Below are positions 1 through 44,528 of a stretch of DNA of 64,000 bases, piece by piece. Position 1 is the stretch's first letter. Each line of letters starts with the position of its first letter. Below the pieces are notes generated by a model. It ran no database searches. It was not told where the DNA came from and was given only the letters and a program-made list of their open reading frames with translations. This stretch comes from a virus (taxonomy: Duplodnaviria > Heunggongvirae > Uroviricota > Caudoviricetes), in the IMG/VR virus record IMGVR_UViG_3300023174_000099, positions 1 to 64,000 of that record. One strand, 5' to 3'. The position numbers and the translations under genes are program-made.

Positions 1-20
1 GGGGGGGGGGGGGCGGGGGA
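1..20. repeat. Poly-G run at window start; likely contig-end/assembly or terminus artifact
   Basis: 19 of the first 20 bases are G, in an otherwise AT-rich genome. Confidence 0.5.
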
Positions 21-30
21 GGGCCGAAAA

Positions 31-226
31 TCCTTATTGATAATGCGTCGCAATAGCAGCAATGGCTGGGCCCGATATAATGCATTATGTTCAATAGATT
101 TATCCCAATGAATCCAATGGGTTAGGTCGCTCCCACATGATAAAGCGTATTATGTTCAATGGCCAAAAATCCGAATGATACAATATATCCTATCACGAGC
201 CTTATTGATAATGATTCGCAATAGCA
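31..226. repeat. Two copies of direct repeat CCTTATTGATAATGnnTCGCAATAGCA (31-58, 199-226) in a non-coding terminal region
   Basis: Direct comparison of the sequence at 31-58 and 199-226; no ORF in 1-370. Confidence 0.6.
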
Positions 227-374
227 TGATACAATATCTCATAACATCCCCTATAGCCTGCTGCGCCAGTGCAAAAGTAGTAATATAATAATGTTACGTG
301 TATATTGCGCCAAAACGAGTAGTAGTTCAATAACTATTATTTTCCGCGTGGGAGGGTAGCAAAAATTTAGTGCT

Positions 375-403
375 TGACATTATGTCTCTTTTTTGGTATT
401 ATG
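375..403 (+). promoter_or_regulatory. sigma70-type promoter: TTGACA-17-TATTAT, start codon near the TSS
   Basis: TTGACA 375-380, TATTAT 398-403; ATG at 410. Confidence 0.55.
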
Positions 404-409
404 TATATT

Positions 410-1159
410 ATGAAGAAATGGACCTACGAGGAAAACGAGCTTATAACATCAAACAAGGCTAATGGTAAATCCTATGCCGAGATTACTAAATTACTACCTG
501 AGCGCAGCTATACTGCTGTAAGACTTCAAGGCTTTAAATTGCTTGGAGGGATAAACAAGAAAACGCCTTGGACATACAAAGAAGAAGAAGAGCTTCTTAC
601 TTTACGAGGGCTAGACTATACTTACCCTGAAATTGGTGAGTTGATGAATAGAACCAAAGATTCTATAGCTGTCAAAGTTCAAAACCTAGTAAAAGAGGGT
701 AGAACTCAACCGAAACTTCCTAATTCATATACTAAAGAAGAATTAATAGATATAGTTAAACAGTACAAAAAAGTCACACTATGTCCATATGATAAACTAT
801 ATCATATAAAGAAACAATTTGGTAGCTGGACTAATGCAGCAGCAGAGGCCGGTATAGCTTTTAGTGGGCTAGACCCTTCTATAAATACTACACTATATTT
901 ACTGGACTTCGGTAAATTTTATAAGATTGGAATAACTCAGCAAGGTATAAAACATAGATTTTATGGTGTACAGCTAGAGTACCGGGTAGTGGACTTACTA
1001 GACACTACCCTACTAGAAGCTAAGCAGATGGAAAAAGAGGTTCTTAAACATATTATTAAATATTCGTATCGGCCAGAGAAATTAAAAGGTAACGGGTCAA
1101 CGGAGTGCTTTATTCCTCCACGGCCAATTCAAAGCCTGGAGGAAATCTTCGACCTATAA
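410..1159 (+). CDS. T5orf172/MUG113 (GIY-YIG-like) domain protein with N-terminal Myb/SANT-like HTH repeats (paralog 1 of 5)
   Basis: ORF track 374..1159. Start moved to ATG 410 (MKKWTYEE) because of the promoter position. WTxEE..L repeats at N-terminus. C-terminal YLLDFGKFYKIGIT...ECFI motif matches T5orf172. Confidence 0.7.
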   Translation: MKKWTYEENELITSNKANGKSYAEITKLLPERSYTAVRLQGFKLLGGINKKTPWTYKEEEELLTLRGLDYTYPEIGELMNRTKDSIAVKVQNLVKEGRTQPKLPNSYTKEELIDIVKQYKKVTLCPYDKLYHIKKQFGSWTNAAAEAGIAFSGLDPSINTTLYLLDFGKFYKIGITQQGIKHRFYGVQLEYRVVDLLDTTLLEAKQMEKEVLKHIIKYSYRPEKLKGNGSTECFIPPRPIQSLEEIFDL

Positions 1160-1176
1160 AAGCGCGCCTGCGCCAA

Positions 1177-1205
1177 ATTATAGCAGAGTGCGAAACCAAT
1201 GTCAA
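1177..1205 (-). promoter_or_regulatory. Minus-strand sigma70 promoter: TTGACA-17-TATAAT, antisense to the upstream plus-strand gene
   Basis: Reverse complement of 1177-1205 reads TTGACAttggtttcgcactctgcTATAAT. Confidence 0.5.
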
Positions 1206-1248
1206 GCGATTTTTTCAGCTGCCGTCCCACATTACGCGAATTTAAGAG

Positions 1249-1277
1249 TTGACTTTCTCAGCCCGATCCCCTATATT
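1249..1277 (+). promoter_or_regulatory. sigma70 promoter: TTGACT-17-TATATT
   Basis: TTGACT 1249-1254, TATATT 1272-1277. Confidence 0.5.
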
Positions 1278-1339
1278 ATTTATATCGAGAGGGCGGACGA
1301 GCCGATGAGCGCAGACCCCGCCTCTCCCGAAAAAAGTAG

Positions 1340-1368
1340 TTGACTGGGCCTGCTCAGTTTGCTATAAA
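1340..1368 (+). promoter_or_regulatory. sigma70 promoter: TTGACT-17-TATAAA with upstream A-tract
   Basis: aaaaaagtagTTGACTgggcctgctcagtttgcTATAAA. Confidence 0.55.
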
Positions 1369-1393
1369 GAATGGGACAGAAAGGAAGAAGGAA

Positions 1394-1795
1394 ATGAGTT
1401 TTATTTCAACTCTCAAAAAATTCTTCTTGACTGTCCAATCCCAACCGGCTATAATGGCCATCTCAACTGACGGAGAGAAGAACATGACTAAGACCATCGA
1501 AAAGAACTACACTGAAGCTCAGGAAGCCGAAATGCTCGCTCTGGGTACCATCGACAACGCTACCGCGACCATGCTTGCCACCAAGTTCGGCAAGAATGTT
1601 GCCAGCATCCGTGCCAAGGCCGTGCGTCTTGGCGTGTACCAGGCGAAGGAACGTGTTTCCAAGTCTGGTGCTGCTATCGAGCGCAAGCAAGCCATCGTGG
1701 CTGAAATCGCCTCGCTGGTCGGTCGCAACATGGAGGGCCTCGAAAAGGCTCCCAAGCAGGCTCTCGTGGCGATCCGCGCTGCGCTGAGTGCCTGA
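1394..1795 (+). CDS. Hypothetical protein with conserved HTH-like module (YTE..L...G.N.ASIRAKAVRLGVY); member of a 4-paralog family
   Basis: ORF track 1340..1795. Start chosen at ATG 1394 after RBS gaaaggaagaaggaa. Motif shared with 11751..12092, 34773..35129 and 38888..39604. Confidence 0.55.
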   Translation: MSFISTLKKFFLTVQSQPAIMAISTDGEKNMTKTIEKNYTEAQEAEMLALGTIDNATATMLATKFGKNVASIRAKAVRLGVYQAKERVSKSGAAIERKQAIVAEIASLVGRNMEGLEKAPKQALVAIRAALSA

Positions 1796-1894
1796 TTAAT
1801 GGGGAAGCGAGTGGGTAACTAACTCACATACCTTCCCGTCAGGAAGCGGGGACAGTTGGAAATCAACTGTCCCCAACCTTCTAAAAAATTGTTC

Positions 1895-1923
1895 TTGACT
1901 TGTAGTGCCAAATTTGCTATATT
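1895..1923 (+). promoter_or_regulatory. sigma70 promoter: aaaattgttcTTGACT-17-TATATT (copy 1 of a duplicated 45-bp promoter)
   Basis: Identical over about 45 bp to the promoter at 2055-2083. Confidence 0.6.
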
Positions 1924-2054
1924 GTTTAAGTAATGGGACGCCGTCTACAAGTAGAGTCCGGTGTTTAAATCAAGAGATAAACTCGTGTGCTGAAACGCTA
2001 CATCTGATAGCAATATAGTAAGACGAAAACTCTTGGCCCAGCTTAAAATTGTTC

Positions 2055-2083
2055 TTGACTTGTAGTGCCAAATTTGCTAATAT
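2055..2083 (+). promoter_or_regulatory. sigma70 promoter: aaaattgttcTTGACT-17-TAATAT (copy 2 of the duplicated promoter)
   Basis: Sequence identity with 1884-1923. Confidence 0.6.
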
Positions 2084-2092
2084 AAGGAATAG

Positions 2093-2692
2093 ATTGATGG
2101 CCCATCCATCAATCTAGGGGCAGCCAAAAGCGATGGCTTTAAAGACAGGTTCCCACGTGGTCTAACCGATCAACCTGTCGCCCATTTTTGTTTTGACCTA
2201 GATACGACTTGGGTTCTACCAAGCGTGAGAATGCTAGGACAGGAAGCGACAATCTGGTGCTTCAGTTCTACCTAGATACCGCGTACTTTCGAGTACAACG
2301 TGATAATGCTAGGAGACATTCGGCCCGACTCTGAGGGCCAGCACTCTACTAGTATGAGTTAGATTACTAGTGCTCAACCTACCAGTGAGCTTAATTTGTG
2401 GGGGGTCTGCCTGCGGAGGTGATTCGCAGGCAGTAACTTGGACATTGAGAGTGGCTAATCAATGTCGCGAAGTTTTGCCACGAAGATGGCAGGTGCCATG
2501 CACGAAGTACTTCTAGCTAGAGTACATCTTCAACGACGACGAAGGGTTGGGTCGCTCCCACCTATGACTAGACTGTGGCTTGCGCTAGCTAGTCTGAGAT
2601 AAGTCGAGGTTAAGCAAGTGGAGACCTTCGCGGGGACCCTCCAGTATAACACCTAGAGCGCATCAGTGGTCGAAAGACTGCTGGTGCGCTTT
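2093..2692 (+). ncRNA. Candidate promoter-driven noncoding RNA of about 600 nt, GC-rich and structured, with internal direct repeats
   Basis: No plus-strand ORF of 60 aa or more. Only a 6-codon ORF follows the promoter. Ends at a hairpin plus T-tract (2651-2697). Internal repeats ctagatac...gataatgctagga occur twice. Confidence 0.3.
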
Positions 2693-2697
2693 TTGCT
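2651..2697 (+). terminator. Rho-independent terminator-like hairpin followed by TTTTTGCT
   Basis: gcgcatcag...ctggtgcgc stem followed by tttttgct. Confidence 0.45.
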
Positions 2698-2704
2698 GCG
2701 CCAA

Positions 2705-2733
2705 ATTTTAGCAGAAATCTAGTGCGGAGTCAA
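2705..2733 (-). promoter_or_regulatory. Minus-strand sigma70 promoter: TTGACT-17-TAAAAT
   Basis: Reverse complement reads TTGACTccgcactagatttctgcTAAAAT. Confidence 0.45.
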
Positions 2734-2798
2734 CACAAATTTTTAGGGTGCTGCCAGATTTTTCTTAAAAAAATACCCCGCCGAAGCGAGGTACTTTC

Positions 2799-3120
2799 TT
2801 AACCATTACCAAACAGGTTCCCATCGGCACCCCGCTTGAAGAAGCCCGCCTGAATAGCGAGCTGCTCCAGCCGCGGCATCTTGGTCTTCGTGAACGCATA
2901 CGACGACAGCTTGGGACGCTTCCGCAAGAGGTCGCTACGGCGAAGACCGTCCAGCTTTGCTAGGACAGCAAGCTGGCGCCCGAACTCGTACCCGGCAGTT
3001 GCCGTGTCGTAGTCGAAGGGCTCGTCGCTGTAGACGCTCATGAAGCCCCGAGCCTTTTCGGGGTACTTATTCAACCACGTCTCGAAGCTAACGGTTCGGC
3101 TGCTCTTAGAAAAATTGCTC
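2799..3120 (-). CDS. Hypothetical protein (107 aa)
   Basis: Minus ORF 2799..3248, trimmed to the internal Met (MSNFSKSS) which has RBS GGAGAGAAG and two upstream minus promoters. Confidence 0.5.
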
Positions 3121-3146
3121 ATTGCTTCTCTCCCTTTGACTTTCAT

Positions 3147-3175
3147 AATATAGCGCAAGGGCTCGAACAAGTCAA
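3147..3175 (-). promoter_or_regulatory. Minus-strand sigma70 promoter: TTGACT-17-TATATT
   Basis: Reverse complement reads TTGACTtgttcgagcccttgcgcTATATT. Confidence 0.55.
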
Positions 3176-3213
3176 CACCTATTTTAAGCAGGCTTAAAAC
3201 ACGCGCTTGCGCC

Positions 3214-3242
3214 AAAATTATAGTGCAAATTCTACGTGGTGT
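3214..3242 (-). promoter_or_regulatory. Minus-strand consensus sigma70 promoter: TTGACA-17-TATAAT, in tandem with the previous one
   Basis: Reverse complement reads TTGACAccacgtagaatttgcacTATAAT. Confidence 0.55.
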
Positions 3243-3314
3243 CAACACAAATTTTAAGCCATGCTAGGAAACTTCGTTTCCAAAGTTGCTTTCCTGCTTT
3301 GCTTTTTATTTGTG

Positions 3315-3343
3315 TTGACTTGAAGCCCAACTTAGTCTATATT
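3315..3343 (+). promoter_or_regulatory. sigma70 promoter: TTGACT-17-TATATT
   Basis: gtgTTGACTtgaagcccaacttagtcTATATT. Confidence 0.55.
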
Positions 3344-3367
3344 CAATTATCAACTGAGGAGAGAAGC

Positions 3368-3607
3368 ATGATTTACGTTCGTGAACACATTGAAAACCTT
3401 CTGGCCGCTTTAATCGGGGAGCGCCTGCAAGCTGAGATCTTTGACCATAACCCGCAGTGGCTAGGATTTAGCCTTGACATCGACATGCCGGAAGGCGACG
3501 AATTGTTTCGGTTTGATGTTCTAGTGGAAGATGGAGACGAGGGTCTCCTAGTTGTTGCTGATGGGGTGGTTGACCACAATTTTGATTTGATTTTGAACAT
3601 TCTGTGA
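3368..3607 (+). CDS. Small highly acidic hypothetical protein (79 aa)
   Basis: ATG 3368 follows RBS gaggagagaag. D/E-rich C-terminal half. Followed by a terminator. Confidence 0.5.
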   Translation: MIYVREHIENLLAALIGERLQAEIFDHNPQWLGFSLDIDMPEGDELFRFDVLVEDGDEGLLVVADGVVDHNFDLILNIL

Positions 3608-3610
3608 GAT

Positions 3611-3645
3611 TAGCCCGCTTAGTTAAGTCTAAGCGGGCTTTTTCG
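3611..3645 (+). terminator. Rho-independent terminator: agcccgcttag...ctaagcgggct + TTTTT
   Basis: Perfect 11-bp stem followed by a T-run. The TTTTTCGTACCTG tail is shared with the terminator at 18614. Confidence 0.7.
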
Positions 3646-3756
3646 TACCTGTGCCCGGTTAATGCGGTTTTAATGTACTTTATTCTAGCTGCGCCCAACG
3701 CAGAAGCGCCAAAAATTGATAGCTGGAGTGGCACTTTGAAGCAAATCTGGCGATTG

Positions 3757-4150
3757 AAGCTAGGTCAGCGAACTTCGTTCGCAAGCTACTGTGCGTGCGC
3801 AGCTAGTGCTAAGCTAATGTAAGCTAGTGATAATCTAACGCAGACAAAGAAAAAGCCCCACCCAGTAGGGCAGAGCTTGAAGCTAGGCTTGCGAACTTCG
3901 TTCGCCAGCTAGGGCTAGAATTATGCTAGGATAGATTGAACGAGATTGACGCGATGAGTTCGGCTTTGGTAAAGATTGAATACCAAAAAGCCCGTTGAAT
4001 CCACTTAAAATTTTTTAAATTCAATAAACGGATTTCGACTCTTGCTGATTTGTAGCTCGCTTTATTAGGTTGTAATAATGCCGTTAGCTTCGCTAACAAG
4101 CCATCGAACTTCGTTCGTCTCTTTATTAAGAGCTTCGAACTTCGTTCGAT
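3757..4150. repeat. Cluster of palindromic hairpin repeats GCGAACTTCGTTCGC (4 copies) in a convergent strand-switch region
   Basis: CGAACTTCGTTCG at about 3771, 3892, 4104 and 4133. Two copies lie inside a 35-bp direct repeat TTGAAGCTAGGnnnGCGAACTTCGTTCGCnAGCTA. Confidence 0.6.
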
Positions 4151-4360
4151 GACTTAATTCATGTTATTCTCAAGCTTAGAGTAACTTTCCCCTAGTCTGC
4201 CTTCCGACGTCCGCCTAAATGCAATGCTGCCGGACGGATCGTACTGGGGCCCCTACCCCAACCGCCGTCGTCATCATCGCGGCAAGGCCGCCAGAAGATC
4301 ATCCCAGGGATATCTTCTCTCTTACTTATGTTAGTATTATACATGAGTATAGTTTGAAAG

Positions 4361-4666
4361 TCAAGCACTATTTTTCCCAGGTTCGGTAGATCTGCGTAGA
4401 ACATTTAGCATCGAAGCTACGGTTCCTACGGAACAATCGAATTGACGGGATAATGCTTTGTTAGATGCTCCTTCATCTTTAAGACGAAGAAGTAGTTCTT
4501 TATCTTCCGTAGACCATTTGCGGTTCTTTTTAAGCCCGAGCTTATAAATCCTTGACTTTACAGCACTCTCGCTCCTGCCGGGCATTCGTACTGTGATCTC
4601 TCTAGCCGTGAAACCCTCCATCCACAGCTTGGAGATTAGTTCTTCTTCAATTTCTGTCCAGCGCAT
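4361..4666 (-). CDS. Myb/SANT-like HTH repeat protein (two WTxEE..L repeats)
   Basis: MRWTEIEEELISKLW... and RKWSTEDKELLLRLKDEG. Confidence 0.55.
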   Translation of the reverse strand: MRWTEIEEELISKLWMEGFTAREITVRMPGRSESAVKSRIYKLGLKKNRKWSTEDKELLLRLKDEGASNKALSRQFDCSVGTVASMLNVLRRSTEPGKNSA

Positions 4667-5225
4667 TTAGAATTGCCTCCGCCTCTTCTGAAGTAAGATT
4701 ACTTGTAAGCTTTCTAATTGTCTCTTTAGCATACATCTCTTGAGAACCAGTCTTAGCGGATAGTGCATTAATTAATGTTTTAGTCAGCTCCTGTGTATTA
4801 CCTGGAAGTTGAGCCTTACTAGAGAACATCCATGCAACTACATGCCCTTCATACAAAATAGTGGAATGATCGAACTTAAATCCCGTTTTTTGGGATATTT
4901 CGGCTCTAATTTCATTTTTCTTTTCAATAGTAGGAACGTTACTGATCTCTTTAGTAGAACCTGGATAAATAAGCTCGATAATAGCTAGCTTATCAAGAAG
5001 TTCTGGACTTAAGTCTACTTGAACTTTTTTCTCTACAATTTTAGTGCCATCAGCAAACCGAAGCCTTCCATCCTCAGCTAGACGACGTGCTTTTCGTGAA
5101 ACTCTATCCCAACTAGATGTTGCGTGTACTAGTGCCTCAGTAATATCATCTTTAGCCGCTCTGATAGATGGGTGCTTTGAGCAGATTTTAATTAGTGTAT
5201 CTTCTTCTTCTTTAGTCCAGCCCAT
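4647..5225 (-). CDS. Hypothetical protein with N-terminal Myb/SANT-like HTH (MGWTKEEEDTLI)
   Basis: ORF track; start overlaps the upstream gene. Confidence 0.55.
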   Translation of the reverse strand: MGWTKEEEDTLIKICSKHPSIRAAKDDITEALVHATSSWDRVSRKARRLAEDGRLRFADGTKIVEKKVQVDLSPELLDKLAIIELIYPGSTKEISNVPTIEKKNEIRAEISQKTGFKFDHSTILYEGHVVAWMFSSKAQLPGNTQELTKTLINALSAKTGSQEMYAKETIRKLTSNLTSEEAEAILNALDRN

Positions 5226-5694
5226 AATGTCCTCCTAGTATATCTTTAACTTTTTGTATATTTGATTCATTTACTAGCTTCTTAAAAAACTGAAAGCCAG
5301 CTGGGTTAATTGGATCAACTACTTCTAACTCATCCGCTAGGTCATACCAACGGTTGCGGTAAGCTTCTACTTTAATACGAGCAATATCTCTTTTTAAAAC
5401 TCTAGAGTCGGTTTGCTTAGCTTTATTCCAAATTTCATCGAGAGTCTGGCCTTGTAATGAATAGTCTAGCACTAGTCTCTCAATATCCCGCCTATTGTAT
5501 TCGCTGAATAGCTTTTGAAATCTATTATTATCTAGCTCACGTTCTACCAGAATAACAGCCATATCAGTTATATAATCTTCAGACGTATCTATCATTATGC
5601 CACCGTAGTCTTCTACAATAGCTTGTTCTACAGTAGTTATATTATTTCTTTTTAAGTATTTTCTAAGTTTATTTATATCTTTTTTAGTTAACAT
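5212..5694 (-). CDS. Hypothetical protein (160 aa); first gene of a minus-strand operon
   Basis: RBS GAAAGGAGG before ATG at 5694; promoter at 5733-5761. Confidence 0.55.
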   Translation of the reverse strand: MLTKKDINKLRKYLKRNNITTVEQAIVEDYGGIMIDTSEDYITDMAVILVERELDNNRFQKLFSEYNRRDIERLVLDYSLQGQTLDEIWNKAKQTDSRVLKRDIARIKVEAYRNRWYDLADELEVVDPINPAGFQFFKKLVNESNIQKVKDILGGHYGLD

Positions 5695-5732
5695 TTAATC
5701 CTCCTTTCTTTTCTCGTATTGAGAATATACAT

Positions 5733-5761
5733 ATATTACAACTTTTTGATTAAAAAGTCAA
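5733..5761 (-). promoter_or_regulatory. Minus-strand sigma70 promoter: aatagttcTTGACT-17-TAATAT
   Basis: Reverse complement of 5733-5770. Confidence 0.55.
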
Positions 5762-5806
5762 GAACTATTTTCTCCCAACCCCTCAAAGGCAACACCGCTG
5801 AATTTA

Positions 5807-5835
5807 GTTCTTGACCAACCGAGGGGTTTGTGTTA
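5807..5835 (+). promoter_or_regulatory. sigma70 promoter: TTGACC-17-TATATT, duplicated at 6557-6590
   Basis: Promoter plus leader with RBS ataaggagagaa is repeated before the 6616 gene. Confidence 0.5.
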
Positions 5836-5859
5836 TATTAAATCATAAGGAGAGAAGTA

Positions 5860-6552
5860 ATGCTTTATATTGAAAACAAGAATAACGTATCTGGCGATGC
5901 TTGGGTCTCTGGCAATGCTTGGGTCTCTGGCAATGCTGAGGTCTATGGCGATGCTAAGGTCTTTGGCAGTGCTGAGGTCTATGGCGATGCTATGGTCTCT
6001 GGCAATGCTGAGGTCTATGGCGATGCTAAGGTCTTTGGCAATGCTATGGTCTCTGGCAATGCTGAGGTCTCTGGCAATGCTATGGTCTCTGGCAATGCTG
6101 AGGTCTATGGCGATGCTTGGGTCTCTGGCAATGCTGAGGTCTATGGCGATGCTTGGGTCTCTGGCAATGCTTGGGTCTCTGGCAATGCTGAGGTCTATGG
6201 CGATGCTAAGGTCTTTGGCAATGCTAAGGTCTTTGGCAATGCTAAGGTCTATGGCGATGCTGAGGTCTATGGCGATGCTTGGGTCTCTGGCAATGCTGAT
6301 ATTCAATGTAATAACGATTGGTTCACAATTACACATAATGGTAATACTATTACCGGCTATCGTTCACGCAATGATCTAGGTTATGAGTTGAATATTGATG
6401 GTGTGGCTACTGAGCTTTCAGAACTTGGCGGCTCTACATACATCGCATCTCTTATCGCTAAGTTCACTACATTAAAGACTGAGTTAGACATTCGTATTGA
6501 AAATCTCGAATTTGAACTTGCAGAACTCAAAGCAATCAGAAAAGCTAACTGA
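5860..6552 (+). CDS. Hexapeptide-repeat (left-handed beta-helix type) protein with C-terminal coiled coil
   Basis: About 23 repeats of V-x-G-[ND]-A-x (VSGNAE/VYGDAK/VFGNAM). Strong RBS. C-terminus LKTELDIRIENLEFELAELKAIRKAN. Confidence 0.65.
   Translation: MLYIENKNNVSGDAWVSGNAWVSGNAEVYGDAKVFGSAEVYGDAMVSGNAEVYGDAKVFGNAMVSGNAEVSGNAMVSGNAEVYGDAWVSGNAEVYGDAWVSGNAWVSGNAEVYGDAKVFGNAKVFGNAKVYGDAEVYGDAWVSGNADIQCNNDWFTITHNGNTITGYRSRNDLGYELNIDGVATELSELGGSTYIASLIAKFTTLKTELDIRIENLEFELAELKAIRKAN
5886..6300 (+). repeat. Tandem 18-bp DNA repeats (about 23 units, e.g. ggcaatgctgaggtctat) encoding the hexapeptide repeats
   Basis: Visible periodicity. It creates artefactual long ORFs in other frames and on the other strand (5833..6336 minus, 5870..6379 plus). 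Confidence 0.8.
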
Positions 6553-6615
6553 AGCCAATATAGTTCTTGATTGGTTGACGGGTTTGTATTATATTAAGTC
6601 ATAAGGAGAGAACTA

Positions 6616-6798
6616 ATGAGTATTCATTATCTAGACAAAGACAGTGTGGAGTTTATTATGCAGCTTCGCTCGGTCTCAAAAGAGATCGCGCTATGGGCCA
6701 GTGAAGAACTACTTCGAGGAACTCCACTAGAGGAGGTAAAGTTGCGTATGAATACCATGGTTACTGAACTCGAAAAGCAGAGGAAAACCAATGTTTGA
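6616..6798 (+). CDS. Hypothetical protein (60 aa)
   Basis: RBS aaggagagaac; promoter/leader duplicated from the 5860 gene. Confidence 0.45.
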   Translation: MSIHYLDKDSVEFIMQLRSVSKEIALWASEELLRGTPLEEVKLRMNTMVTELEKQRKTNV

Positions 6799-6973
6799 TG
6801 TAATTGTTGATATTGACGAAGCGATCGCTCAGGAACTGTCGGATTGGTGCGATTTCAATCTCGATGGCTTCATGGGCTATGTGACTCATGGTAAGGGTCA
6901 TAAGTTCTATTTTGAGGATAAGACTGCCGCGAAGGCTTTTGAGATTCTTGTGCAGAGTGAGGAGTGGAACTAA
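6791..6973 (+). CDS. Hypothetical protein (60 aa)
   Basis: Start overlaps the upstream stop. Confidence 0.4.
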   Translation: MFDVIVDIDEAIAQELSDWCDFNLDGFMGYVTHGKGHKFYFEDKTAAKAFEILVQSEEWN

Positions 6974-7525
6974 TGAGTCCTGATGATATTGATGACATTG
7001 CGCTAGATGTATTTGATTTACTGGCTGACCTAGGCTGCGATCTAGGAGATGATGACTACGATCAACTTTCGTCTCTGCTTCATGACAAGCTGGGGCCTTT
7101 TGTAACTCGTGAGAGGAACTATAACTAGTGGTCTTCATAGTTCTCACTCTGAGGGACGGCTCTGTGCTAGTAGACTCCGTCTACAGGACGCTCGCCGAGG
7201 CCCAAGCCTGCGTAAGTTCAAAGTCAATCGAAACCGTCTGGATAGTAAGGAAACTAATCAAATGAATAAGTATGAACGCTGTATTACCTTTTTCGCCCTG
7301 TCGTTTCTAGTCTCCTCAACCTCCTCAGGTATTTGGAGTGCTATTGTGGCAATCATTCTAATTGTTTATGGCATCTGGACTCACTTTCGATGAGAATAGC
7401 AGTCTACCTTCTGTATGAGAAATCGTACCGAGATGAGAACGTTCGAGTCTTCTCTAGCCTAGAGAAACTTCAGGCCACACGTCGCAAGCGAGGGTATACA
7501 TATACCTATGAAAGAGTGATAGTCG

Positions 7526-8062
7526 ATGAAGTATAAAATCATCAAGAATGAAACCTTCGACGGCCAAGACTTTCGAGAAGTTTCGTTTCTAGGTGCCGAG
7601 CTAGAAAACTCCGTTTTCATGAACTGTAACTTCGGTGAGGCTCTTCTCACCGGAGTTATTTTCACATCCTGCGAGTTCTACGGGTGCAACTTCGATCTAG
7701 CGTATATCTTTCGCAGCCAGTTCAAGAACTGTCAGATAACCGATTGTAGCTTCACACAGAGTACACTCATGTCGACGGTTGACTTTCCCGGCACAACTTT
7801 CGTGGACGTCGTATACAATGATCTGCCTATTGGCCGACCACCACTTATCATCGACGGCATTGAATATCCCATCATCGCGCTAGACAATGGCTATATGCAA
7901 GTCGGGTGCGAGTTCAATACCTATGAGTGGTTTTATAATACTGACGAGAAGCACAGTGCCAGAATGGAAGGCTTGAAGGCCCGAAGGTTCTGGAAGAAGA
8001 ATAAGAAGTGGATTTTTAATATGCTAGAAGCAAGGGGGCTTTATGTACGTACTAATGACTAA
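7526..8062 (+). CDS. Pentapeptide-repeat protein
   Basis: Repeated A(D/N)LxG/F-type pentapeptides, e.g. NCNFGEALLTGVIFTSCEFYGCNFDLAYIFRSQFKNCQITDCSFTQSTL. Confidence 0.65.
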   Translation: MKYKIIKNETFDGQDFREVSFLGAELENSVFMNCNFGEALLTGVIFTSCEFYGCNFDLAYIFRSQFKNCQITDCSFTQSTLMSTVDFPGTTFVDVVYNDLPIGRPPLIIDGIEYPIIALDNGYMQVGCEFNTYEWFYNTDEKHSARMEGLKARRFWKKNKKWIFNMLEARGLYVRTND

Positions 8063-8160
8063 ACGTCCAGATAGACCAGGTTTTGATTATGTTGCACTGT
8101 TTGATACCTATCAAGAAGCAGCTTTAGCTGCTTTGAACCACAAAGAAGAAACTCTTATCT

Positions 8161-8367
8161 TTGAGGAGCCATCACTTGTACGACCCAAATGAAGATCAGA
8201 GCCTCCAGAGGCTTTTAGACATTGCAACCCACGAGCAGCTCAAGCAACTGTTCACTAAGCTTTATGCTGAACATCAAAAAAACTGTGCTGATTATGATAA
8301 ACTAAAAACTGACGTAGCGTGGGAAAAGTCTGCTCGACACGCTGAAAGGAGCGGAGGATGGATGTAA
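8161..8367 (+). CDS. Hypothetical protein
   Basis: ORF track only. Confidence 0.3.
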   Translation: MRSHHLYDPNEDQSLQRLLDIATHEQLKQLFTKLYAEHQKNCADYDKLKTDVAWEKSARHAERSGGWM

Positions 8368-8546
8368 GATTCTTGGGTGAGTCCAAAACTTATTACTTCA
8401 CTTGCTCTAGTGAGTACTGGGAAGATTGGCGTACTACGGATGGTGAAACTTGGGAAAATCTAATGGGTGACAGTTGGGAAACAATGTACACTGTTCCCAA
8501 GGAACTTCAGGACTACTGGGACAACGAGTTCAAAGATAACTCTTGA
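8358..8546 (+). CDS. Hypothetical protein (W/D/E-rich)
   Basis: ORF track only. Confidence 0.35.
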   Translation: MDVRFLGESKTYYFTCSSEYWEDWRTTDGETWENLMGDSWETMYTVPKELQDYWDNEFKDNS

Positions 8547-9454
8547 TCTTAGCGGTTTATTTTGCTATATTAAGATGAAAGGAATAAATAGTGTTTTTTC
8601 TATCAGTACCAAGTGAATATATGCACGCTTTGCAACAGGTTCAGTGTGAGTTTCCAACGAAGATCACGATGAATCAGTTTGAAGACGTGCTTGATATTAC
8701 GGTTGATGAACCCGGACTGCTGATTCTGCTAGCAGCCACTATCGCAAAGGCATCCTAATGTTCTGTGCAGACTGTTCTAACTCAACGCTCTTTAATGGGC
8801 ATTTTCTTTGCACTAGGTTTTATAAGACAGAAATCAATCTAGTGACAGGCGAAACGAATACTCGCGGCGCGCTGACTTCATGTGACTATGAACGAAGTGC
8901 TAGATCAACGCGAACCTGCGGCCCAGAGGGCAAGTTCTTTCAAGGAATAGATAATGTTTAGTGCTTTCACATGGTTCTGGATTATCTACTTCTCTATTGG
9001 TGTGTTGATTATGATGGAACCTCTAGCGACCGTACTGGATAATCCAAAATACTATGAACTTAGTATGCTAACAAAAATAGTTGCCGCCTTCACATCTATT
9101 ATTGTGTGGCCACTAGTGTTCTTCGTTAGTTAAAATAGTTCTTGACTTTGCAGGCCCATTCTAGTATTATATCTAAGTTGAGAGGGAGGACTTATGCGCT
9201 ACATTATCTACGTTCAATTAATCACTGGTGAGGTTATTCGTGCGTTCACGTGGCTGGGTCTTCCTGCTATGGGCATTATCCGTGCGCATCAGGTCGCGCA
9301 GGATCGTGGCTACGAAGGTGTAATGAAGGTTTGGGCTACTCGTTTGGAGGATTTTGAATGAGTTTAGAAGAACGCTATCTTAAATGCTTTATAGCTATGC
9401 AGCGAGCACAGAACCCAAGCTTTAAGAAGATTTGGCTTACCAAGATGAGATACT

Positions 9455-9670
9455 TTGAAAGGAAAATTCTTAATGCTATCTCGTGAGATTCTAGAGAAGC
9501 TTACTCATAAGCAGCTCATTGATGCTTATATTGGTCTAGCCTTTAAGTATAAAAAGCTAGAGCAGGATCTTAGTAAGTCGAGTTCAGATTTGTCTTGGAT
9601 TAGAAATCCTGATCGCAGCGGCGGTCAATTCACGGATGAAGAAATCGAAAGGTCTCGAAATGGATACTAA
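9455..9670 (+). CDS. Hypothetical protein
   Basis: ORF track; promoter at 9131-9170 upstream. Confidence 0.4.
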   Translation: MKGKFLMLSREILEKLTHKQLIDAYIGLAFKYKKLEQDLSKSSSDLSWIRNPDRSGGQFTDEEIERSRNGY

Positions 9671-9699
9671 GTTCTATCTACATATTAAGGAGCGTCTCC

Positions 9700-10023
9700 A
9701 TGTATGATCCAGACTATTGGTGTGTGATTAAGATTAACTCTAAAGACCCACACTATCGAGTGTTTGGGTCGTGGGCTAGTAGCTATGCTACTGGATCATC
9801 TTGGCGCTTGAATAGCGGTATTACTAAAGTGGAAGAGAAGGATGACTGTTTTCTCTTTCATGGCAGTACTGGCTCTATTTATCGCTGCCACAAGGAAATG
9901 TATGGCTGCCATCATGGTAGTCAGGGACAGTTGAATTACTACATGAGCCAACCAGAAGTAGCAGTCGTAGACCTTCTTCCGGAGGACACTAACTGGCTAG
10001 AAATAGATTGGATTATTCAATAA
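9700..10023 (+). CDS. Hypothetical protein (107 aa)
   Basis: RBS aaggagcg before ATG. Confidence 0.45.
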   Translation: MYDPDYWCVIKINSKDPHYRVFGSWASSYATGSSWRLNSGITKVEEKDDCFLFHGSTGSIYRCHKEMYGCHHGSQGQLNYYMSQPEVAVVDLLPEDTNWLEIDWIIQ

Positions 10024-10037
10024 AGGTAATATGACTA

Positions 10038-10265
10038 ATGAATATCGAGATTAATTGGCTCAGCGATTCTTCTGATTGCGATCAAGCAGGCTGCTCTGGC
10101 GGTTACAGTGAGGGCGCAGTCGTAAAGGTCGATGGCAAGACCATCCTAGAACTTATTCCAGTTGCTCATTGCTTTGGCGGAGATAGCTGGGATCGCGATC
10201 AGGTCTGGGCTATGATTCTAGACAAGTTGATTGGTAATGTAACTGTGGAGCAGTGGTATGGATGA
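10038..10265 (+). CDS. Hypothetical protein
   Basis: ORF track. Confidence 0.4.
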   Translation: MNIEINWLSDSSDCDQAGCSGGYSEGAVVKVDGKTILELIPVAHCFGGDSWDRDQVWAMILDKLIGNVTVEQWYG

Positions 10266-10901
10266 TATTATTTTATTTGTTGTCTCTCTAGTAGTGTTAT
10301 TTCTTATTATGGTAGGACTTGCACTTTATAGCTTAGAATCTACTCGTAACTGTAGAATGGAAGCCGCTGCTAAGGGCTATAACGTCAAGGAGATTTGCGA
10401 ATGATTCCAGATATGCGAAAGAAGGAAGAGCTTACTTACGAGGAGGCTCTTCATCATCTGTGGCGACTTCTCAACGCTGATACCTACCGTAAGATTACGA
10501 AGGCAATCAACGCTGAGATCGCTAAAAATAATCCTTGACTTTCCCAGCCCAAGCTAGTATAGTGTTTATCTAATGGGAGATAGACATGAAGAACTTTGTT
10601 GCAAAAAACGCTTGGAAATTCAATCGCGCTAAGGTCGTGCCTTCCAAGAAGCTGTACTCCAGGAAGAAGGTGAAGCATGATTACTAGCCTAGTAATCGCG
10701 TATCTAATGATACCCGGCTCAATAATTCTGCCTGCAAGCGGAGTGTTATTTCTATGGAGGAAATATGGCAAAAGAGTTCACTAATCTAGAATGTACCCAT
10801 GCTTCATTGCAAAAGTACATGGATAATAATTATCCCTATCTAAACTATAAGATTAAGTATTTTGACGGCAAACTGTCAATTCCGATGAAAGGATTAAAGA
10901 A

Positions 10902-11288
10902 ATGAAGACTGTAAGTGTAGTATTCCAGAGCGACAACTATGATCGTGGAGTGGGTGGTAACTCTTACGACTATCTAGTGGCTGACGATGTGGCCGTAGAA
11001 GCTGGCGACTTTGCAGTCGCACATAATGGCACTAAGTATGCTATTGTTCGGGTAGTAAGTGTAAGCATGGAAATCAGCCAGAACGCTACTAAGTCCCTAG
11101 TACTTATGCTAAACAAGCAGGTTTTTACAGACTATGAAAAGCAGAATGAAGCTGTAAACGAGCAGAAGCGCATGTTCGTGCGTCTTCAGCAGCTCATGGA
11201 ACAGGAATACGAGAAGAACAAGTATCGTGTGCTTGCCCAGAGCAATGCCGAAGCCGCTGAACTAGCCAATAAGCTCGGCCTAGTTTGA
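10902..11288 (+). CDS. Hypothetical protein (128 aa)
   Basis: RBS aaagaaATG. Confidence 0.45.
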   Translation: MKTVSVVFQSDNYDRGVGGNSYDYLVADDVAVEAGDFAVAHNGTKYAIVRVVSVSMEISQNATKSLVLMLNKQVFTDYEKQNEAVNEQKRMFVRLQQLMEQEYEKNKYRVLAQSNAEAAELANKLGLV

Positions 11289-12247: not shown

Positions 12248-12421
12248 ATGGGAAATCGAATTAAGGCAGCACTAGCTGCTACACTAATTACTTTTGGTGG
12301 ACTATGTATCATAGCCTGCGCTCCAGAAGCTCCAGGTGGTGTTGAAGCTCCTGCTGACCCAGCTCTACCCCCATGTCGGGAAAATGCTGGCGGTGAAACA
12401 CCTGAATGTCAACCTCAGTAA
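12248..12421 (+). CDS. Putative small lipoprotein
   Basis: ORF track 12224..12421, trimmed to the downstream ATG 12248. MGNRIKAALAATLITFGGLCIIAC is a signal peptide with lipobox-like LCIIAC. Confidence 0.35.
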   Translation: MGNRIKAALAATLITFGGLCIIACAPEAPGGVEAPADPALPPCRENAGGETPECQPQ

Positions 12422-12430
12422 AAATTGTTC

Positions 12431-12459
12431 TTGACTTCCTAGGCCAGATTTGGTAATAT
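12431..12459 (+). promoter_or_regulatory. sigma70 promoter: aaaattgttcTTGACT-17-TAATAT, followed by a perfect 9-bp GAAA-tetraloop hairpin and a 360-nt structured leader
   Basis: catcagttgGAAAcaactgatg at 12464-12485; ggacggtg...caccgtcc at 12706-12733. Confidence 0.5.
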
Positions 12460-12823
12460 GTTTCATCAGTTGGAAACAACTGATGTTCTGGAACTTGAGA
12501 ATATGTCCAGCACTACGTAAGTAGTGGGTTAACCTCTCTAATGCCTGGTTGGGTTTCTTAGAGACTCCGAAGCGGCCTTTCTGACGGCGATTGTGCCTAA
12601 CAATAGTTCCGTTCCGGCGGCGTATTTGTCGTTACATGATTACGCGTTCAACACTGTCACGAACTACGGGCCTTCTTCATAGAGAGATGAGCGACAGATA
12701 AGGCTTTGGACGGTGTGCCTTAAAACACCGTCCATTCTGGTGGTTCCATGCAACCAGCGTGGACTTTATAGATTAGATTTTTACATACGAGCACGGCTTG
12801 TGTTTGTGTGGAACCACCTGAAT

Positions 12824-12906
12824 GGCTGGGTAGAGGAGTTTGGTTATCTCGCCGCGCTCATAACGCGGGCTTTTACACGCCGGTTCAAATCCGGCCCCAG
12901 CAACCA
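12824..12906 (+). tRNA. tRNA-like gene, anticodon CAT (Met/initiator-like); irregular (G1-A72 mismatch, 10-nt variable region)
   Basis: T-arm gccggTTCAAATccggc, anticodon stem ccgcg/cgcgg with loop cuCAUaa, 3' CCA. The minus-strand ORF translation here contains the GFEP signature. Confidence 0.4.
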
Positions 12907-13065
12907 TAATAATCGGCGGCACAGCTAGGCCAGCTAGTGTCTCATCTGCGAATCTTGTCTGGGCGTGCGCAGACCCTAGGCCACCTGTGGAGGTGGTAAT
13001 GAGGAAGGGACAAGAGCCGAATATAAATACAATAAATAAACCTAATATTAGGTTAAGAATTTGCC

Positions 13066-13085
13066 GAAAAGGGTAGCTCCCCTGA
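13066..13085 (+). promoter_or_regulatory. Conserved homing-endonuclease leader motif GAAAAGGGTAGCTCCCCTG (copy 1 of 4)
   Basis: Near-identical copies at about 27667, 28634 and 32660, each 40-70 nt upstream of an HNH or GIY-YIG gene. Confidence 0.6.
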
Positions 13086-13128
13086 CTTCTCCCTTGAAGA
13101 AGTCTAGGCAATTAGTTTCAAGGGAACA

Positions 13129-21452: not shown

Positions 21453-21462
21453 AATATATCTT

Positions 21463-21491
21463 GACTTTTCGAGCATAATTTGTTATAACAA
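21463..21491 (+). promoter_or_regulatory. sigma70 promoter: TTGACT-17-TATAAC
   Basis: aaatatatcTTGACTtttcgagcataatttgtTATAAC. Confidence 0.45.
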
Positions 21492-21532
21492 ATGCATAGT
21501 CGCTGACGATTTGTAATAAAAATGGACAGCAC

Positions 21533-21560
21533 GCGAGTTCGACTCTCGCCGTCTCCACCA
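21533..21560 (+). other. tRNA 3'-half-like element (T-arm gcgagTTCGACTctcgc + 7-nt acceptor strand + A + CCA) with no recognisable 5' half
   Basis: Matches canonical T-arm, acceptor and CCA geometry. No complementary 5' acceptor strand found within 90 nt upstream. Confidence 0.35.
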
Positions 21561-21875
21561 TTTACGGGGACGACTTGGAAATCGACTGACATTACATAGA
21601 CCTTTCCGAGACTATTGACTGGCAAAGTGCCATAATTAACTGCAAACGATAACGTTGCATTCGCGCTAGCTGCATAAGCTAGACGACAGGCGGTGGGAGC
21701 CTTGGAACAGAATCCCACACTCAAAGGAGAGATATGCGTAACATTTGGACAATACCTTTTAATAATAATTATTATATTTGCTGGAAAGACAAACAAGGTA
21801 AGACCCAGCATCGTCCAATGACTGATGCAGAAGATCGTGCCTACTTTACCTCCAAAGACCCTGAAAGAACCCTAA

Positions 21876-41068: not shown

Positions 41069-41896
41069 ATGACAGTAGATGAGCTATTAACAAAAGAGAA
41101 CATATACTTTCGTTCCAGTGGAAAAGACCATGTAGTATGCTGTTTAAATCCAGATCACGAGGATAAAAACCCCAGTATGAGAATCGACAAGATTACTGGG
41201 GTTTTTAACTGTATGTCTTGTGGATTCTCTGGTAATATATTCGAGCACTTTGGTGGAAAACCTAATTGGCTTGGTATTCAGAGAGAGCGATTTAAAAGTC
41301 TAGTACAGAATAAACTAAAGGAGACGGTAGGTCTAGAGATTCCAGAAAATGCTACTCCCTTCGATCAGGAGTGGCGAGGTATCTCTAAAGAGACTTTCCG
41401 TAAATTTAGAGCCTTCCAGCATCCAGACTATGTTAATAGAGTGGTGTTTCCTATCACTGATATGTCTGGTAAGATCAGAGTGTTTTGTGGTAGAGACTTA
41501 GCGAACAACACACCCAAGTATATGTTCTATCCCGCAGAAACACACATACCTTTGTTTCCTATGGTAAAACCCTATAATGGCGATATTATTCTAGTAGAAG
41601 GCATCTTTGATATGCTAAACTTACACGACAAAGGTTTAACCAATGTTTGTTGTATGTTTGGTGTTAATAAGGGAAGCATTGACAAGCTCAAGCTTCTAAA
41701 AGTACAGAACATAAGCTCGGTAACTCTAATGCTAGATTCGGATGAAGCAGGGCAGCGCGGAGCTGAAAAGCTTAAAGCAGAGTTAGAGGGCCTACACGTA
41801 AGCGTAAACAACTTTGTATTACAAACAGTAAAAGATCCAGGTGAATTGACAGCCTCTAAAGTGATCAAATTAAAGGAGACCCTATACGGTGGCTAA
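41069..41896 (+). CDS. DNA primase (zinc-binding + TOPRIM)
   Basis: CCLNPDHEDKNPSM...CMSCG zinc ribbon; TOPRIM VEGIFDMLNLHD ... DSDEAG. Confidence 0.7.
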   Translation: MTVDELLTKENIYFRSSGKDHVVCCLNPDHEDKNPSMRIDKITGVFNCMSCGFSGNIFEHFGGKPNWLGIQRERFKSLVQNKLKETVGLEIPENATPFDQEWRGISKETFRKFRAFQHPDYVNRVVFPITDMSGKIRVFCGRDLANNTPKYMFYPAETHIPLFPMVKPYNGDIILVEGIFDMLNLHDKGLTNVCCMFGVNKGSIDKLKLLKVQNISSVTLMLDSDEAGQRGAEKLKAELEGLHVSVNNFVLQTVKDPGELTASKVIKLKETLYGG

Positions 41897-43634: not shown

Positions 43635-43967
43635 AGTAATTTATAGGTAATAAACCTGCTCAATTGCTGGAAGCCTAAGTCTAAAATTAGATATGGTAAT
43701 CAGCAGCCAGAGGCGATAGGGATATCGTCAAATGGTTCAGAGACTCACAGAATTTCTAGAACAGAAGTTGCTGGGGTAATAAATTTTATATCTTGACTTT
43801 TTTTGGTCGAAATATAGTACCATCTTAATATTAAAAATTAATTTGGTGTTTATTACAAAAGGCAGGTATCTACGTATGGAATTAAATTTAGAAAACTATA
43901 CTAACAAATGGTAGAAAACGTAGATAAAGGTATAGTCCGTGCCCTACTAAAGTAGGGACTAACATGT
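43635..43967 (+). other. 333-nt in-frame non-coding insert splitting polA (candidate ORF-less group I intron or true split-gene junction); contains a TTGACT promoter-like element and hairpin ccctactAAagtaggg
   Basis: No ORF. Length is a multiple of 3. Flanks reconstitute motif B as FG-x-x-YQAG. Confidence 0.4.
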
Positions 43968-44528
43968 ATGTATCAGGCTGGTGCTCCTACTGTAGCCGAT
44001 CAGATCAATAAAGAAGCCCGCAGTAATAATATGGATTACAGATTCTCCCTACAGGAAGCTCAAGATGTTATTGACCAGTACTTCAAGACCTTCAAAGGAC
44101 TTAAGAGCTGGATTGATGTAAACAAGGAGTTCATTTCCAAGAATGGTTACATCTATTCTTTCTTTGGTCGTAAGCGCAGACTACCAAATGTTCTATCTAG
44201 CGATGGTGGCATCCGTAGTCATGCTGTAAGATCTGGTCTAAACTTCCTCGTGCAGTCTCCTAGCTCAGATGTTAACTTGCTAGGTGGCATTGATATGAAT
44301 AAGTTCATTAAGGACAACAAGATGAAGACTCGGATCTTCGCTCTAGTTCATGACTCTATTCTAGCAGAAGTACCAGAAGACGAGATCGAGTTGTATACCA
44401 CTACCCTTAAGAAGTTCATTCAAAAGGATCGTGGGCTTTCGATTCTTGGATGCCCTATCGGATGCGATTTCGAAATGGGTGATGACTACTCTCTAGGTAA
44501 GTTTGAGAAACAGTATGGAATACTATGA
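43968..44528 (+). CDS. polA: DNA polymerase I family, C-terminal part (rest of motif B through motif C)
   Basis: MYQAGAPTVADQIN..., LVHDSILAEVPEDE (motif C). Confidence 0.7.
   Translation: MYQAGAPTVADQINKEARSNNMDYRFSLQEAQDVIDQYFKTFKGLKSWIDVNKEFISKNGYIYSFFGRKRRLPNVLSSDGGIRSHAVRSGLNFLVQSPSSDVNLLGGIDMNKFIKDNKMKTRIFALVHDSILAEVPEDEIELYTTTLKKFIQKDRGLSILGCPIGCDFEMGDDYSLGKFEKQYGIL

Follow-up and report, generated by a model that had tools for sequence, protein, structure and literature searches.

To our knowledge, few bacterial or phage RNAs above about 500 nucleotides (nt) in length keep a conserved and intricate structure, the main ones being GOLLD, ROOL, OLE and HEARO. GOLLD is encoded by phages, exceeds 800 nt in many members and joins a universally conserved 3' region to a less conserved 5' region, sometimes with transfer RNAs (tRNAs) in the linker, and ROOL reportedly reaches a very high abundance and self-assembles by kissing-loop contacts (PMC12286853). 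Abundant long noncoding RNAs, lnc001 and lnc002, have also been described in phage K (Kayvirus), one of them made from its own early promoter (PMC9241854), and the left terminal repeat of phage T5 contains large untranslated regions rich in repeats and palindromes, which were read as DNA sites with a fixed repeat order (bioRxiv 10.1101/866236). Here we describe a locus at 2090-2695 (or 1930-2695 when it is counted from an upstream promoter, P1) of a 64,000-nt stretch of tailed-phage DNA, positions 1 to 64,000 of IMG/VR record IMGVR_UViG_3300023174_000099, which is called the window below and on whose plus strand all features lie unless stated otherwise; this locus is very probably a gene of its own, with a large structured noncoding RNA as its product.

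The gene would be driven by host-type, sigma-70-like promoters of the class most common in this phage, and its RNA, of about 606 nt, would run from a 5' hairpin to a strong intrinsic terminator. An earlier note on the window, made from its letters alone, had placed two identical 45-bp promoters at 1884-1923 and 2044-2083; two promoters do lie there in an exact direct repeat (1885-1919 and 2045-2079; 0 matches in 100 shuffles), but the identity covers 35 bp and the -10 hexamers differ. Promoter P1 (1885-1923) has a -35 TTGACT at 1895-1900, a 17-nt spacer, a TG-extended -10 TATATT at 1918-1923 and an upstream AAAATTGTTC, and promoter P2 (2045-2083) has a -35 TTGACT at 2055-2060, a 17-nt spacer, a TG extension and a -10 TAATAT at 2078-2083, with a predicted start near 2090; both score as sigma-70-type. 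The promoter class with the upstream motif AAAATTGTTCTTGACT counts 19 members in the window against 1.15 expected and also precedes the transfer-messenger RNA (tmRNA) and tRNA genes, and the exact 16-mer promoter core has only three copies in the window, each ahead of a unit free of open reading frames (ORFs). At the other end, the hairpin plus T-tract described by the same note proved to be an intrinsic terminator (2657-2695) with a 15-bp stem (2657-2671/2676-2690) that holds three G-U pairs, a GAAA loop and a T5 (U5 in the RNA) run. The minus-strand promoter which the note had drawn at 2705-2733 is borne out as a motif (TTGACT-17-TAAAAT, 10/12 matches, followed by a GC-rich discriminator); it stands just past the terminator and is aimed back into the RNA gene.

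Relatives of the locus were gathered with the flanking gene at 2799-3122 (minus strand; 107 amino acids, aa), convergent with the RNA gene and beyond its terminator, as the search handle. Locus L004 is the same phage on a 98.7-kb contig (99.97% identical), L006 is an identical copy minus the 160-nt unit between the promoter repeats, and the diverged loci L008, L011, L012, L086, L087, L089, L090, L091, L093 and L095 have a flanking protein 61-94% identical to the query; accessions with matching contigs include ERZ2680843, SRR7812574, SAMN10254651 and SAMEA4981869. In nearly all relatives an ORF-less gap of 0.5-1.2 kb comes after the flanking gene, and these gaps are homologous to the window but mosaic; the RNAs that can be delimited measure 506-855 nt, sit in the same place and make up nine distinct variants. 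Each has a promoter of the P1/P2 class at its start and a hairpin with a U-run at its end. Relatives keep both the sigma-70 hexamers, spaced by 17 nt, on the upstream side and the GC-rich hairpin with its U-run on the downstream side; the terminator is conserved on the plus strand only and represented by other hairpin sequences ahead of the U-run (three different ones across the set). Even where the flanks are 93-100% identical, as between L093 and the window, the set of hairpin modules varies by presence, absence, duplication or replacement, and a 3' domain is common to all variants but L095 and L096. L096 has a protein gene at the syntenic position. The more distant L095 (L095:354-1417, reverse strand) carries a different noncoding arrangement without the conserved 3' domain, with two promoter-terminator units, one GGUGGAAACUACCG...UAUGG module, T-arm-like segments and a tRNA-Leu(CAA) called by ARAGORN.

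Wider searches added little to this set. Five DNA patterns and two protein queries against IMG/VR gave no further copy of the RNA; one protein query retrieved three loci with a 36-40% identical relative of the upstream protein, from which the RNA is absent, and the other protein query and four of the DNA patterns gave no matches. The fifth pattern, the 18-mer GTYGGGTCGCTCCCRNCT, matched 73 times, and we rejected these matches as chance, as the covariance model of the 3' domain (R1, see below) finds nothing in them. DNA patterns against the JGI metagenome set and the GTDB genomes found no copy, and the protein search gave two further loci.

Comparison of the relatives also bears on how the two promoters are to be read. 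P2 is kept in L008, L091 and L093; in L086 and L012 the promoter is again of this class and differs in its spacer. The earlier note had assigned a separate short RNA to the first promoter; however, no plus-strand terminator-like site was found in the scan between P1 and P2, and the P1 unit is missing in L006 (the rest being 100% identical), L091 and L093, so that transcripts from P1 would run through into a 5'-extended isoform of about 766 nt and no separate short-RNA gene is called for. The 125 nt between the promoters fold as a self-contained domain, and an optional 5' extension module (1930-2044) forms a closed domain in the fold (AAGU..GGG / CCC.AGCUU), while in L008 an upstream promoter is followed by an unrelated 190-nt closed module at that place. 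Since L006, L091 and L093 have a single promoter and L008 this unrelated module, the upstream promoter copy is, as far as sequence comparison goes, a recent and optional addition by duplication.

The structural evidence is strongest in the conserved 3' domain of 127 nt (2531-2657), which comprises a three-way junction, a pseudoknot and a further hairpin, with helices taken from RNAalifold and manual inspection of alignments A5 and A6. Helix P1 pairs 2537-2540 with 2603-2606 (CGAC/GUCG), helix P2 pairs 2544-2551 with 2557-2563 (GGUUGGG/CCCACC) around the almost invariant loop UCGCU, helix P3 pairs 2566-2571 with 2589-2594 (GACUAG/CUAGUC), and the pseudoknot joins an apical segment of P3 (2578-2583, GCUUGC) to the stretch just before P4 (2614-2619, GCAAGU); the further hairpin is P4 (2619-2623 with 2639-2643). 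In an alignment of eight sequences, pairing holds in 97.8% of cells and both sides have changed in 8 of 28 pairs, whereas none of 500 shuffles attained the observed paired percentage or covariation score and structures slid by 1-3 columns were paired at 30-44%. Over A5 and A6 together the figures are 97-98% of cells, 8-10 pairs with changes on both sides, and 28-45% for the slid controls. The R1 model, built from these sequences, matches every relative that carries the domain, including the very divergent L012 (E = 1.5e-9), and finds exactly one copy in the window; the 12-sequence alignment derived from it has ten pairs with compensatory change. The pseudoknot is paired at 100% in eight variants, L012 exchanging a G-C for an A-U pair, and the minimum-energy fold of the isolated domain reproduces helices P1-P4. 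The apical loop of P4 holds a self-complementary 4-6-mer in all six of its loop variants (p ~0.04).

Three side observations concern the same domain. An antiterminator pairing between helix P3 and the terminator, apparent in the window, was dropped as it is not conserved. A near-identical variant (L007:1169-1304, at about window position 2552) carries a 9-nt insertion, GGGTCTGGT, that widens the otherwise invariant UCGCU loop of helix P2; the insertion resembles window 2399-2409 and could be a real variant or an assembly artefact. The hairpin sequence of helix P2, GGGTTAGGTCGCTCCCAC, recurs at 118-136, where the remainder of the domain is missing.

Upstream of this domain the RNA is a chain of hairpin modules. 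It opens with the 5'-terminal hairpin (2090-2116; 11-bp stem, loop CCCAU), which has a terminator-like score when read on the minus strand, and continues with a 5' domain (2118-2183) made of a stem AGCC/GGCU and a long hairpin GACAGGUU...AACCUGUC, for which RNAalifold on five variants gave compensatory changes in 6 of 32 pairs, mostly from L086. Next comes a pair of CCUAG modules (2198-2240 and 2271-2314; in the DNA the repeat CCTAGATAC...GTGA(G/T)AATGCTAGGA), each built as CCUAG-AUAC-[variable hairpin]-GNRAAU(G/U)-CUAGG, with a GGAAGC...GCUUC hairpin between them; their inner stems vary among variants yet stay paired (GUACU/AGUAC against CACC/GGUG, for instance), and 4 of 15 and 5 of 39 pairs in this region show compensatory changes. 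Two hairpins follow at 2322-2371, GGCCC...GGGCC (2322-2339) and ACUAGUA...UACUAGU (2348-2371), and two more at 2407-2466. The first of the latter (2407-2433) bears GGAGGUGAU at 2415-2423, which is complementary to the 3' end of 16S ribosomal RNA (the anti-Shine-Dalgarno sequence) and occurs a single time in the window; its stem is variable, GGAGGUGAU(C/U) is invariant, L008, L011 and L091 carry an 11-nt form (GGAGGUGAUCC), and several variants lack the module. The second hairpin, GACAUUGA...UCAAUGUC, occupies 2441-2466, and 3 of 24 pairs of the hairpins in 2405-2479 have compensatory changes. A connector module (2474-2530), with hairpins UGCCA...UGGCA and GUACUU-[CUAGCUA]-GAGUAC, leads into the 3' domain; its loop CUAGCUA (2514-2520) contains the palindrome UAGCUA, and an unrelated module takes its position in L011, L091, L012 and L089. 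The helices of the 3' domain, the 5' modules and the pseudoknot are supported by compensatory substitutions above controls, in few independent lineages.

The region as a whole folds far better than its shuffles (2088-2700; z = -8.1 on the plus strand and -5.3 on the minus strand). The conserved helices contain G-U pairs, which become A-C mismatches if read on the other strand, and alignment-fold energies are lower on the plus strand in six of six alignments or modules, both of which favour structure in the plus-strand transcript. Long-range pairings in the full-length minimum-energy fold (RNA positions 312-356 with 516-556) were discarded, since they clash with the 3' domain supported by covariation, and a search of the window for complements of two conserved single-stranded segments, as pairing targets, returned only the self match.

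Most of what the earlier note had said of this region holds: it is structured, richer in GC (0.48-0.54 against about 0.41-0.44 directly upstream) and contains the internal direct repeats described above, and a dedicated noncoding RNA locus agrees with what relatives keep, namely a plus-strand promoter, a terminator and compensating helices, with no reading frame. The note's statement that no ORF exceeds six codons was wrong, as ORFs reach 48 codons (GTG, 2370-2516) and 46 codons (ATG, 2462-2602); nevertheless, in relatives each ORF of either strand carries a frameshift or a stop or is missing, so the conserved small protein that it had named as a refutation was looked for there and not found. 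Its suggestion of a riboregulator of the small-RNA type gives way to one large structured RNA. As for the checks that it had proposed, covariation across related phages supports the structure, with 8-10 compensatory pairs in the 3' domain and more in the 5' modules, and cmscan against Rfam 15 matched no family, giving only chance matches to terminator-like small RNAs (window at the gathering threshold, 1150-4400 at E <= 10, ten related loci at E <= 1). The placement in an early region is read from promoter class and map position alone.

Our confidence is high as to what the locus is and low as to what the RNA does. An RNA of this build, with hairpin modules in a row ahead of a conserved, pseudoknotted three-way junction, might be abundant soon after infection, stable, and active in trans by virtue of its shape. 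A common fold or assembly function would then fall to the conserved 3' domain, and the shuffled 5' hairpins, some of them tandem and some tRNA-like in relatives, would offer exchangeable surfaces or binding sites. That the RNA acts in trans, as a scaffold, in assembly or as a decoy, is a tentative proposal to which we give rather less than even credence, while the full explanation, gene and trans-acting role together, is slightly favoured, a grade that is a compromise between its two parts. The palindromes of the P4 loop and the loop CUAGCUA hint weakly at assembly of the GOLLD or ROOL kind, and the invariant segment in the hairpin at 2407-2433, complementary to the anti-Shine-Dalgarno sequence, hints as weakly at ribosome contact. 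Going further, one could imagine a new class of ornate phage RNAs in which the 3' domain drives self-assembly or ribosome engagement and the 5' modules form an exchangeable payload, which might act as multivalent decoys of host RNA-binding proteins with defence or housekeeping roles and would be shuffled in an arms race among closely related T5-like phages. The idea comes from the rapid exchange of modules between near-identical phages, which is the pattern expected of an arms-race payload; we consider it unlikely, but if true, it would be an RNA-level counterpart of the anti-defence islands known for proteins.

Several points weigh against this interpretation. Transcription of the RNA gene is inferred from consensus motifs, and the binding or assembly roles are inference as well. 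The Rfam models of GOLLD (RF01998) and ROOL (RF03087) match neither the window nor the ten related loci up to permissive E-values. The phylogeny is shallow, some 8-10 haplotypes of one phage clade, and because of this the compensatory changes amount to few independent events and the shuffle control is not to be taken as a probability. The palindrome statistic of the P4 loop is weak, the segment complementary to the anti-Shine-Dalgarno sequence is partly paired in the consensus fold (GGA and UUC paired, only GGUGA in the loop), and a conserved consensus promoter that fires antisense into the RNA gene is left unaccounted for by the model.

Among the alternatives, it is rather unlikely that the long transcript is a precursor which RNase P, RNase E or RNase III would cut into active hairpin-sized or tRNA-like stable RNAs, as in phage clusters of tRNAs and stable RNAs. 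The modular hairpin architecture would suit such a precursor, as would the exact promoter core being confined to ORF-less units and the tRNA-like segments in the variable part of two relatives, L011 (read by eye, with no ARAGORN call) and L095 (the tRNA-Leu). A second unit with the same promoter class and a 5' hairpin, which embeds a tRNA-Met, points the same way. The RNA of the window, however, has no tRNA or tRNA-like match and no tRNA inside or adjoining it, the long-range helix P1 and the pseudoknot bind 127 nt into one domain, and no processing signals were identified. The second unit is ORF-less as well (12420-13128); its promoter is 87% identical to P2 over 40 nt, its 5' hairpin reads CAUCAGUUG-GAAA-CAACUGAUG, and a leader of about 340 nt, an 83-nt tRNA-Met(CAT) at 12824-12906 and a trailer of about 220 nt follow, with a fold z of -3.3 and the tRNA as the sole Rfam match.

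It is less probable still that the locus is in essence a sense/antisense pair, in which the promoter at 2733-2705 would transcribe the region backwards as far as the hairpin at 2116-2090, and an RNase III duplex or polymerase interference would act as a timing or dosage switch. The antisense promoter is present just beyond the terminator in every relative, with a perfect consensus in L008, L011 and L012 (TTGACA-17-TATAAT) and TTGACT-17-TATAAT in L087, a minus-strand terminator-like site lies at the required place, and the minus strand, too, folds better than its shuffles. Against this, the terminator-like hairpin of the minus strand is absent in L086 and L012, G-U-keeping compensatory changes and alignment-fold energies favour the plus strand, antisense control does not require a conserved pseudoknotted domain, and the same promoter element stands at 1158-1210 and 3197-3258 in other contexts. 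Antisense transcription may also be an extra regulatory layer and not an alternative at all. The promoter itself may be such an added control or a recurrent promoter cassette, the latter because of these paralogous elements. Each of the three minus-strand copies of the cassette (1158-1210, 2690-2746 and 3197-3258) consists of a promoter and, after it, a GC-rich discriminator, GGCGCA(G)GCGC; two of the promoters read TTGACA-17-TATAAT and the other TTGACT-17-TAAAAT. The copy at 1158-1210 fires antisense into the 3' end of the gene at 374-1159.

We give very little credence to the locus being a DNA site that acts in cis, on the model of the untranslated repeat regions in the left terminal repeat of T5 (an injection stop signal, an origin or a packaging site), with only incidental transcription. 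The terminal repeats of T5-like phages do hold large untranslated regions that are conserved and contain many repeats and palindromes (bioRxiv 10.1101/866236), about 2 kb separate the locus from the contig end, and its density of the tetranucleotide CTAG is the highest in the window (13 in 613 nt; other windows up to 10-11). But blastn (word size 7) against T5 3800-11000 gave only chance matches of 10-23 nt and the R1 model scored at most 8.3 bits against the T5 terminal repeat. DnaA boxes (TT(A/T)TNCACA) number 5 in the window against 5.9 expected, with none in 1-6000. Changes that keep G-U pairs are strand-specific and needless for DNA cruciforms, a promoter and a terminator bracket the region in every relative, and modules are swapped freely, unlike the fixed repeat order reported for T5. 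CTAG enrichment as a signal specific to the locus was dropped, since the excess is phage-wide (464 in the window against about 240 expected, 1.9-fold) and other windows come close.

A cis-regulatory RNA is equally improbable; here the 3' domain would be an aptamer sensing a ligand or protein and tuning the terminator, with read-through running antisense into the convergent 107-aa gene. A compact pseudoknotted junction directly upstream of an intrinsic terminator, and a convergent gene beyond it, speak for such a device, but no antiterminator pairing is conserved, L086, L012 and L089 keep the domain with an outright different terminator sequence, it would be atypical for an aptamer to be preceded by about 440 nt of structured RNA, and no Rfam riboswitch matched. 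Finally, the locus almost certainly does not encode small proteins: there are ORFs of 37-48 codons on both strands and a strong Shine-Dalgarno-like GGAGGUGAU at 2415-2423, but all of these ORFs are frameshifted, interrupted or absent in relatives and no start codon lies 5-10 nt past that sequence, the nearest being a TTG 18 nt away that opens a six-codon frame of variable length.

The RNA gene, still the reading that we prefer, is found in a distant relative of T5, with a tail protein about 33% identical to T5 pb3 and a helicase about 31% identical to those of T5-like Proteus phages, and the window had zero nucleotide matches among GenBank phages (blastn and megablast). The window contains 20 tRNAs, a permuted two-piece tmRNA of the alpha type (21457-21768; tag ANDNVAFALAA), a GcrA-like protein gene (4361-4666, minus strand) and a group I intron (43603-43958; 76.7 bits) that splits the gene of a family A DNA polymerase (PolA) into halves at 41889-43634 and 43968-44528; the permuted tmRNA and the GcrA-like protein hint at an alphaproteobacterial host. 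The RNA locus is placed among small genes dense with sigma-70-type promoters. The flanking 107-aa protein had no match in Pfam, PHROG or PDB sequences, and its AlphaFold model (predicted local distance difference test, pLDDT, 80) had no significant fold match; a 133-aa protein upstream of the locus is weakly similar to a 'D5-like transcriptional regulator'.

Other features of this end of the window are recorded for completeness. Positions 1-25 are a poly-G run (G13CGGGGGAGGG) that resembles a sequencing or assembly artefact at a contig end; on the 98.7-kb contig the same sequence extends beyond the window start (L004:9120), and for that reason the start may be a physical genome end or a terminal-repeat boundary. 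Short direct repeats lie at 30-250 (CCTTATTGATAATG.GTCGCAATAGCA, GATATAATGCATTATGTTCAAT and ATGATACAATAT, each twice), and the gene at 374-1159, of low GC (about 35%) with Myb/D5-like repeats and a T5orf172/endonuclease domain, looks like a mobile insertion. The ORF-poor stretch at 3640-4200 carries the palindrome CGAACTTCGTTCG four times (3766, 3889, 4102, 4133), a 35-nt repeat at 3754-3788 and 3877-3911, and terminator-like hairpins on both strands, and may hold operator sites or another RNA. At 5833-6552, ORFs on both strands overlap across degenerate 18-nt (6-aa) repeats, such as GDAWVSGNAEVY on the plus strand; the plus-strand ORF 5860-6552 (230 aa) is a gene also called on contig L004, and a protein-family search with it gave no match.

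Set beside known systems, the locus shares features with several and coincides with none. Ribosomal RNA (rrn) operons place tandem P1-P2 promoters ahead of stable RNA genes, and here, too, two strong sigma-70 promoters 160 bp apart precede an RNA gene, but the upstream copy is a recent and optional duplication (35 bp identical) missing in three relatives. In the T5 terminal repeat, too, large ORF-less stretches with many repeats and palindromes lie between strong promoters of the host type, close to the left end of a T5-like genome; the present region differs in being bracketed by a promoter and a terminator and in having helices that covary strand-specifically. The lnc001 and lnc002 RNAs of phage K were defined by RNA sequencing, with no reported structure or covariation, and were compared by sequence only through the negative GenBank phage search. 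ROOL is a large RNA of phages and prophages of about the same length, but it is described as conserved along its length save for a linker, not as mosaic, and its model gave no match.

The closest architecture is that of GOLLD, which is likewise phage-borne, hundreds of nt long and highly structured with pseudoknots. The likeness extends, in architecture only, to a conserved 3' region with a variable 5' region, here the 127-nt domain and the swapped 5' modules; the tRNA or tRNA-like inserts of some GOLLD members may have counterparts in L011 (the segment read by eye) and L095 (the tRNA-Leu, in a locus without the 3' domain). The RNA described here is shorter (506-855 nt), has no neighbouring tRNA in the window, belongs to a T5-like lytic phage from metagenome contigs and, with no match to the covariance model, is not a member of the GOLLD family by sequence or by structure model. 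Judged from the alignments and searches reported here, it is a new RNA family of a known kind, the large structured phage RNA, with an unusually mosaic build. It is short enough for in vitro transcription and cryo-electron microscopy, and the shuffling of modules between near-identical phages provides natural 'domain-swap' variants with which one can map the parts that matter. That a further, unrelated family, from another phage lineage and placed among host-type promoters near the genome end, follows the same plan (conserved 3' core, variable 5' part and, in some relatives, possible tRNA-like inserts) suggests a solution that recurs.

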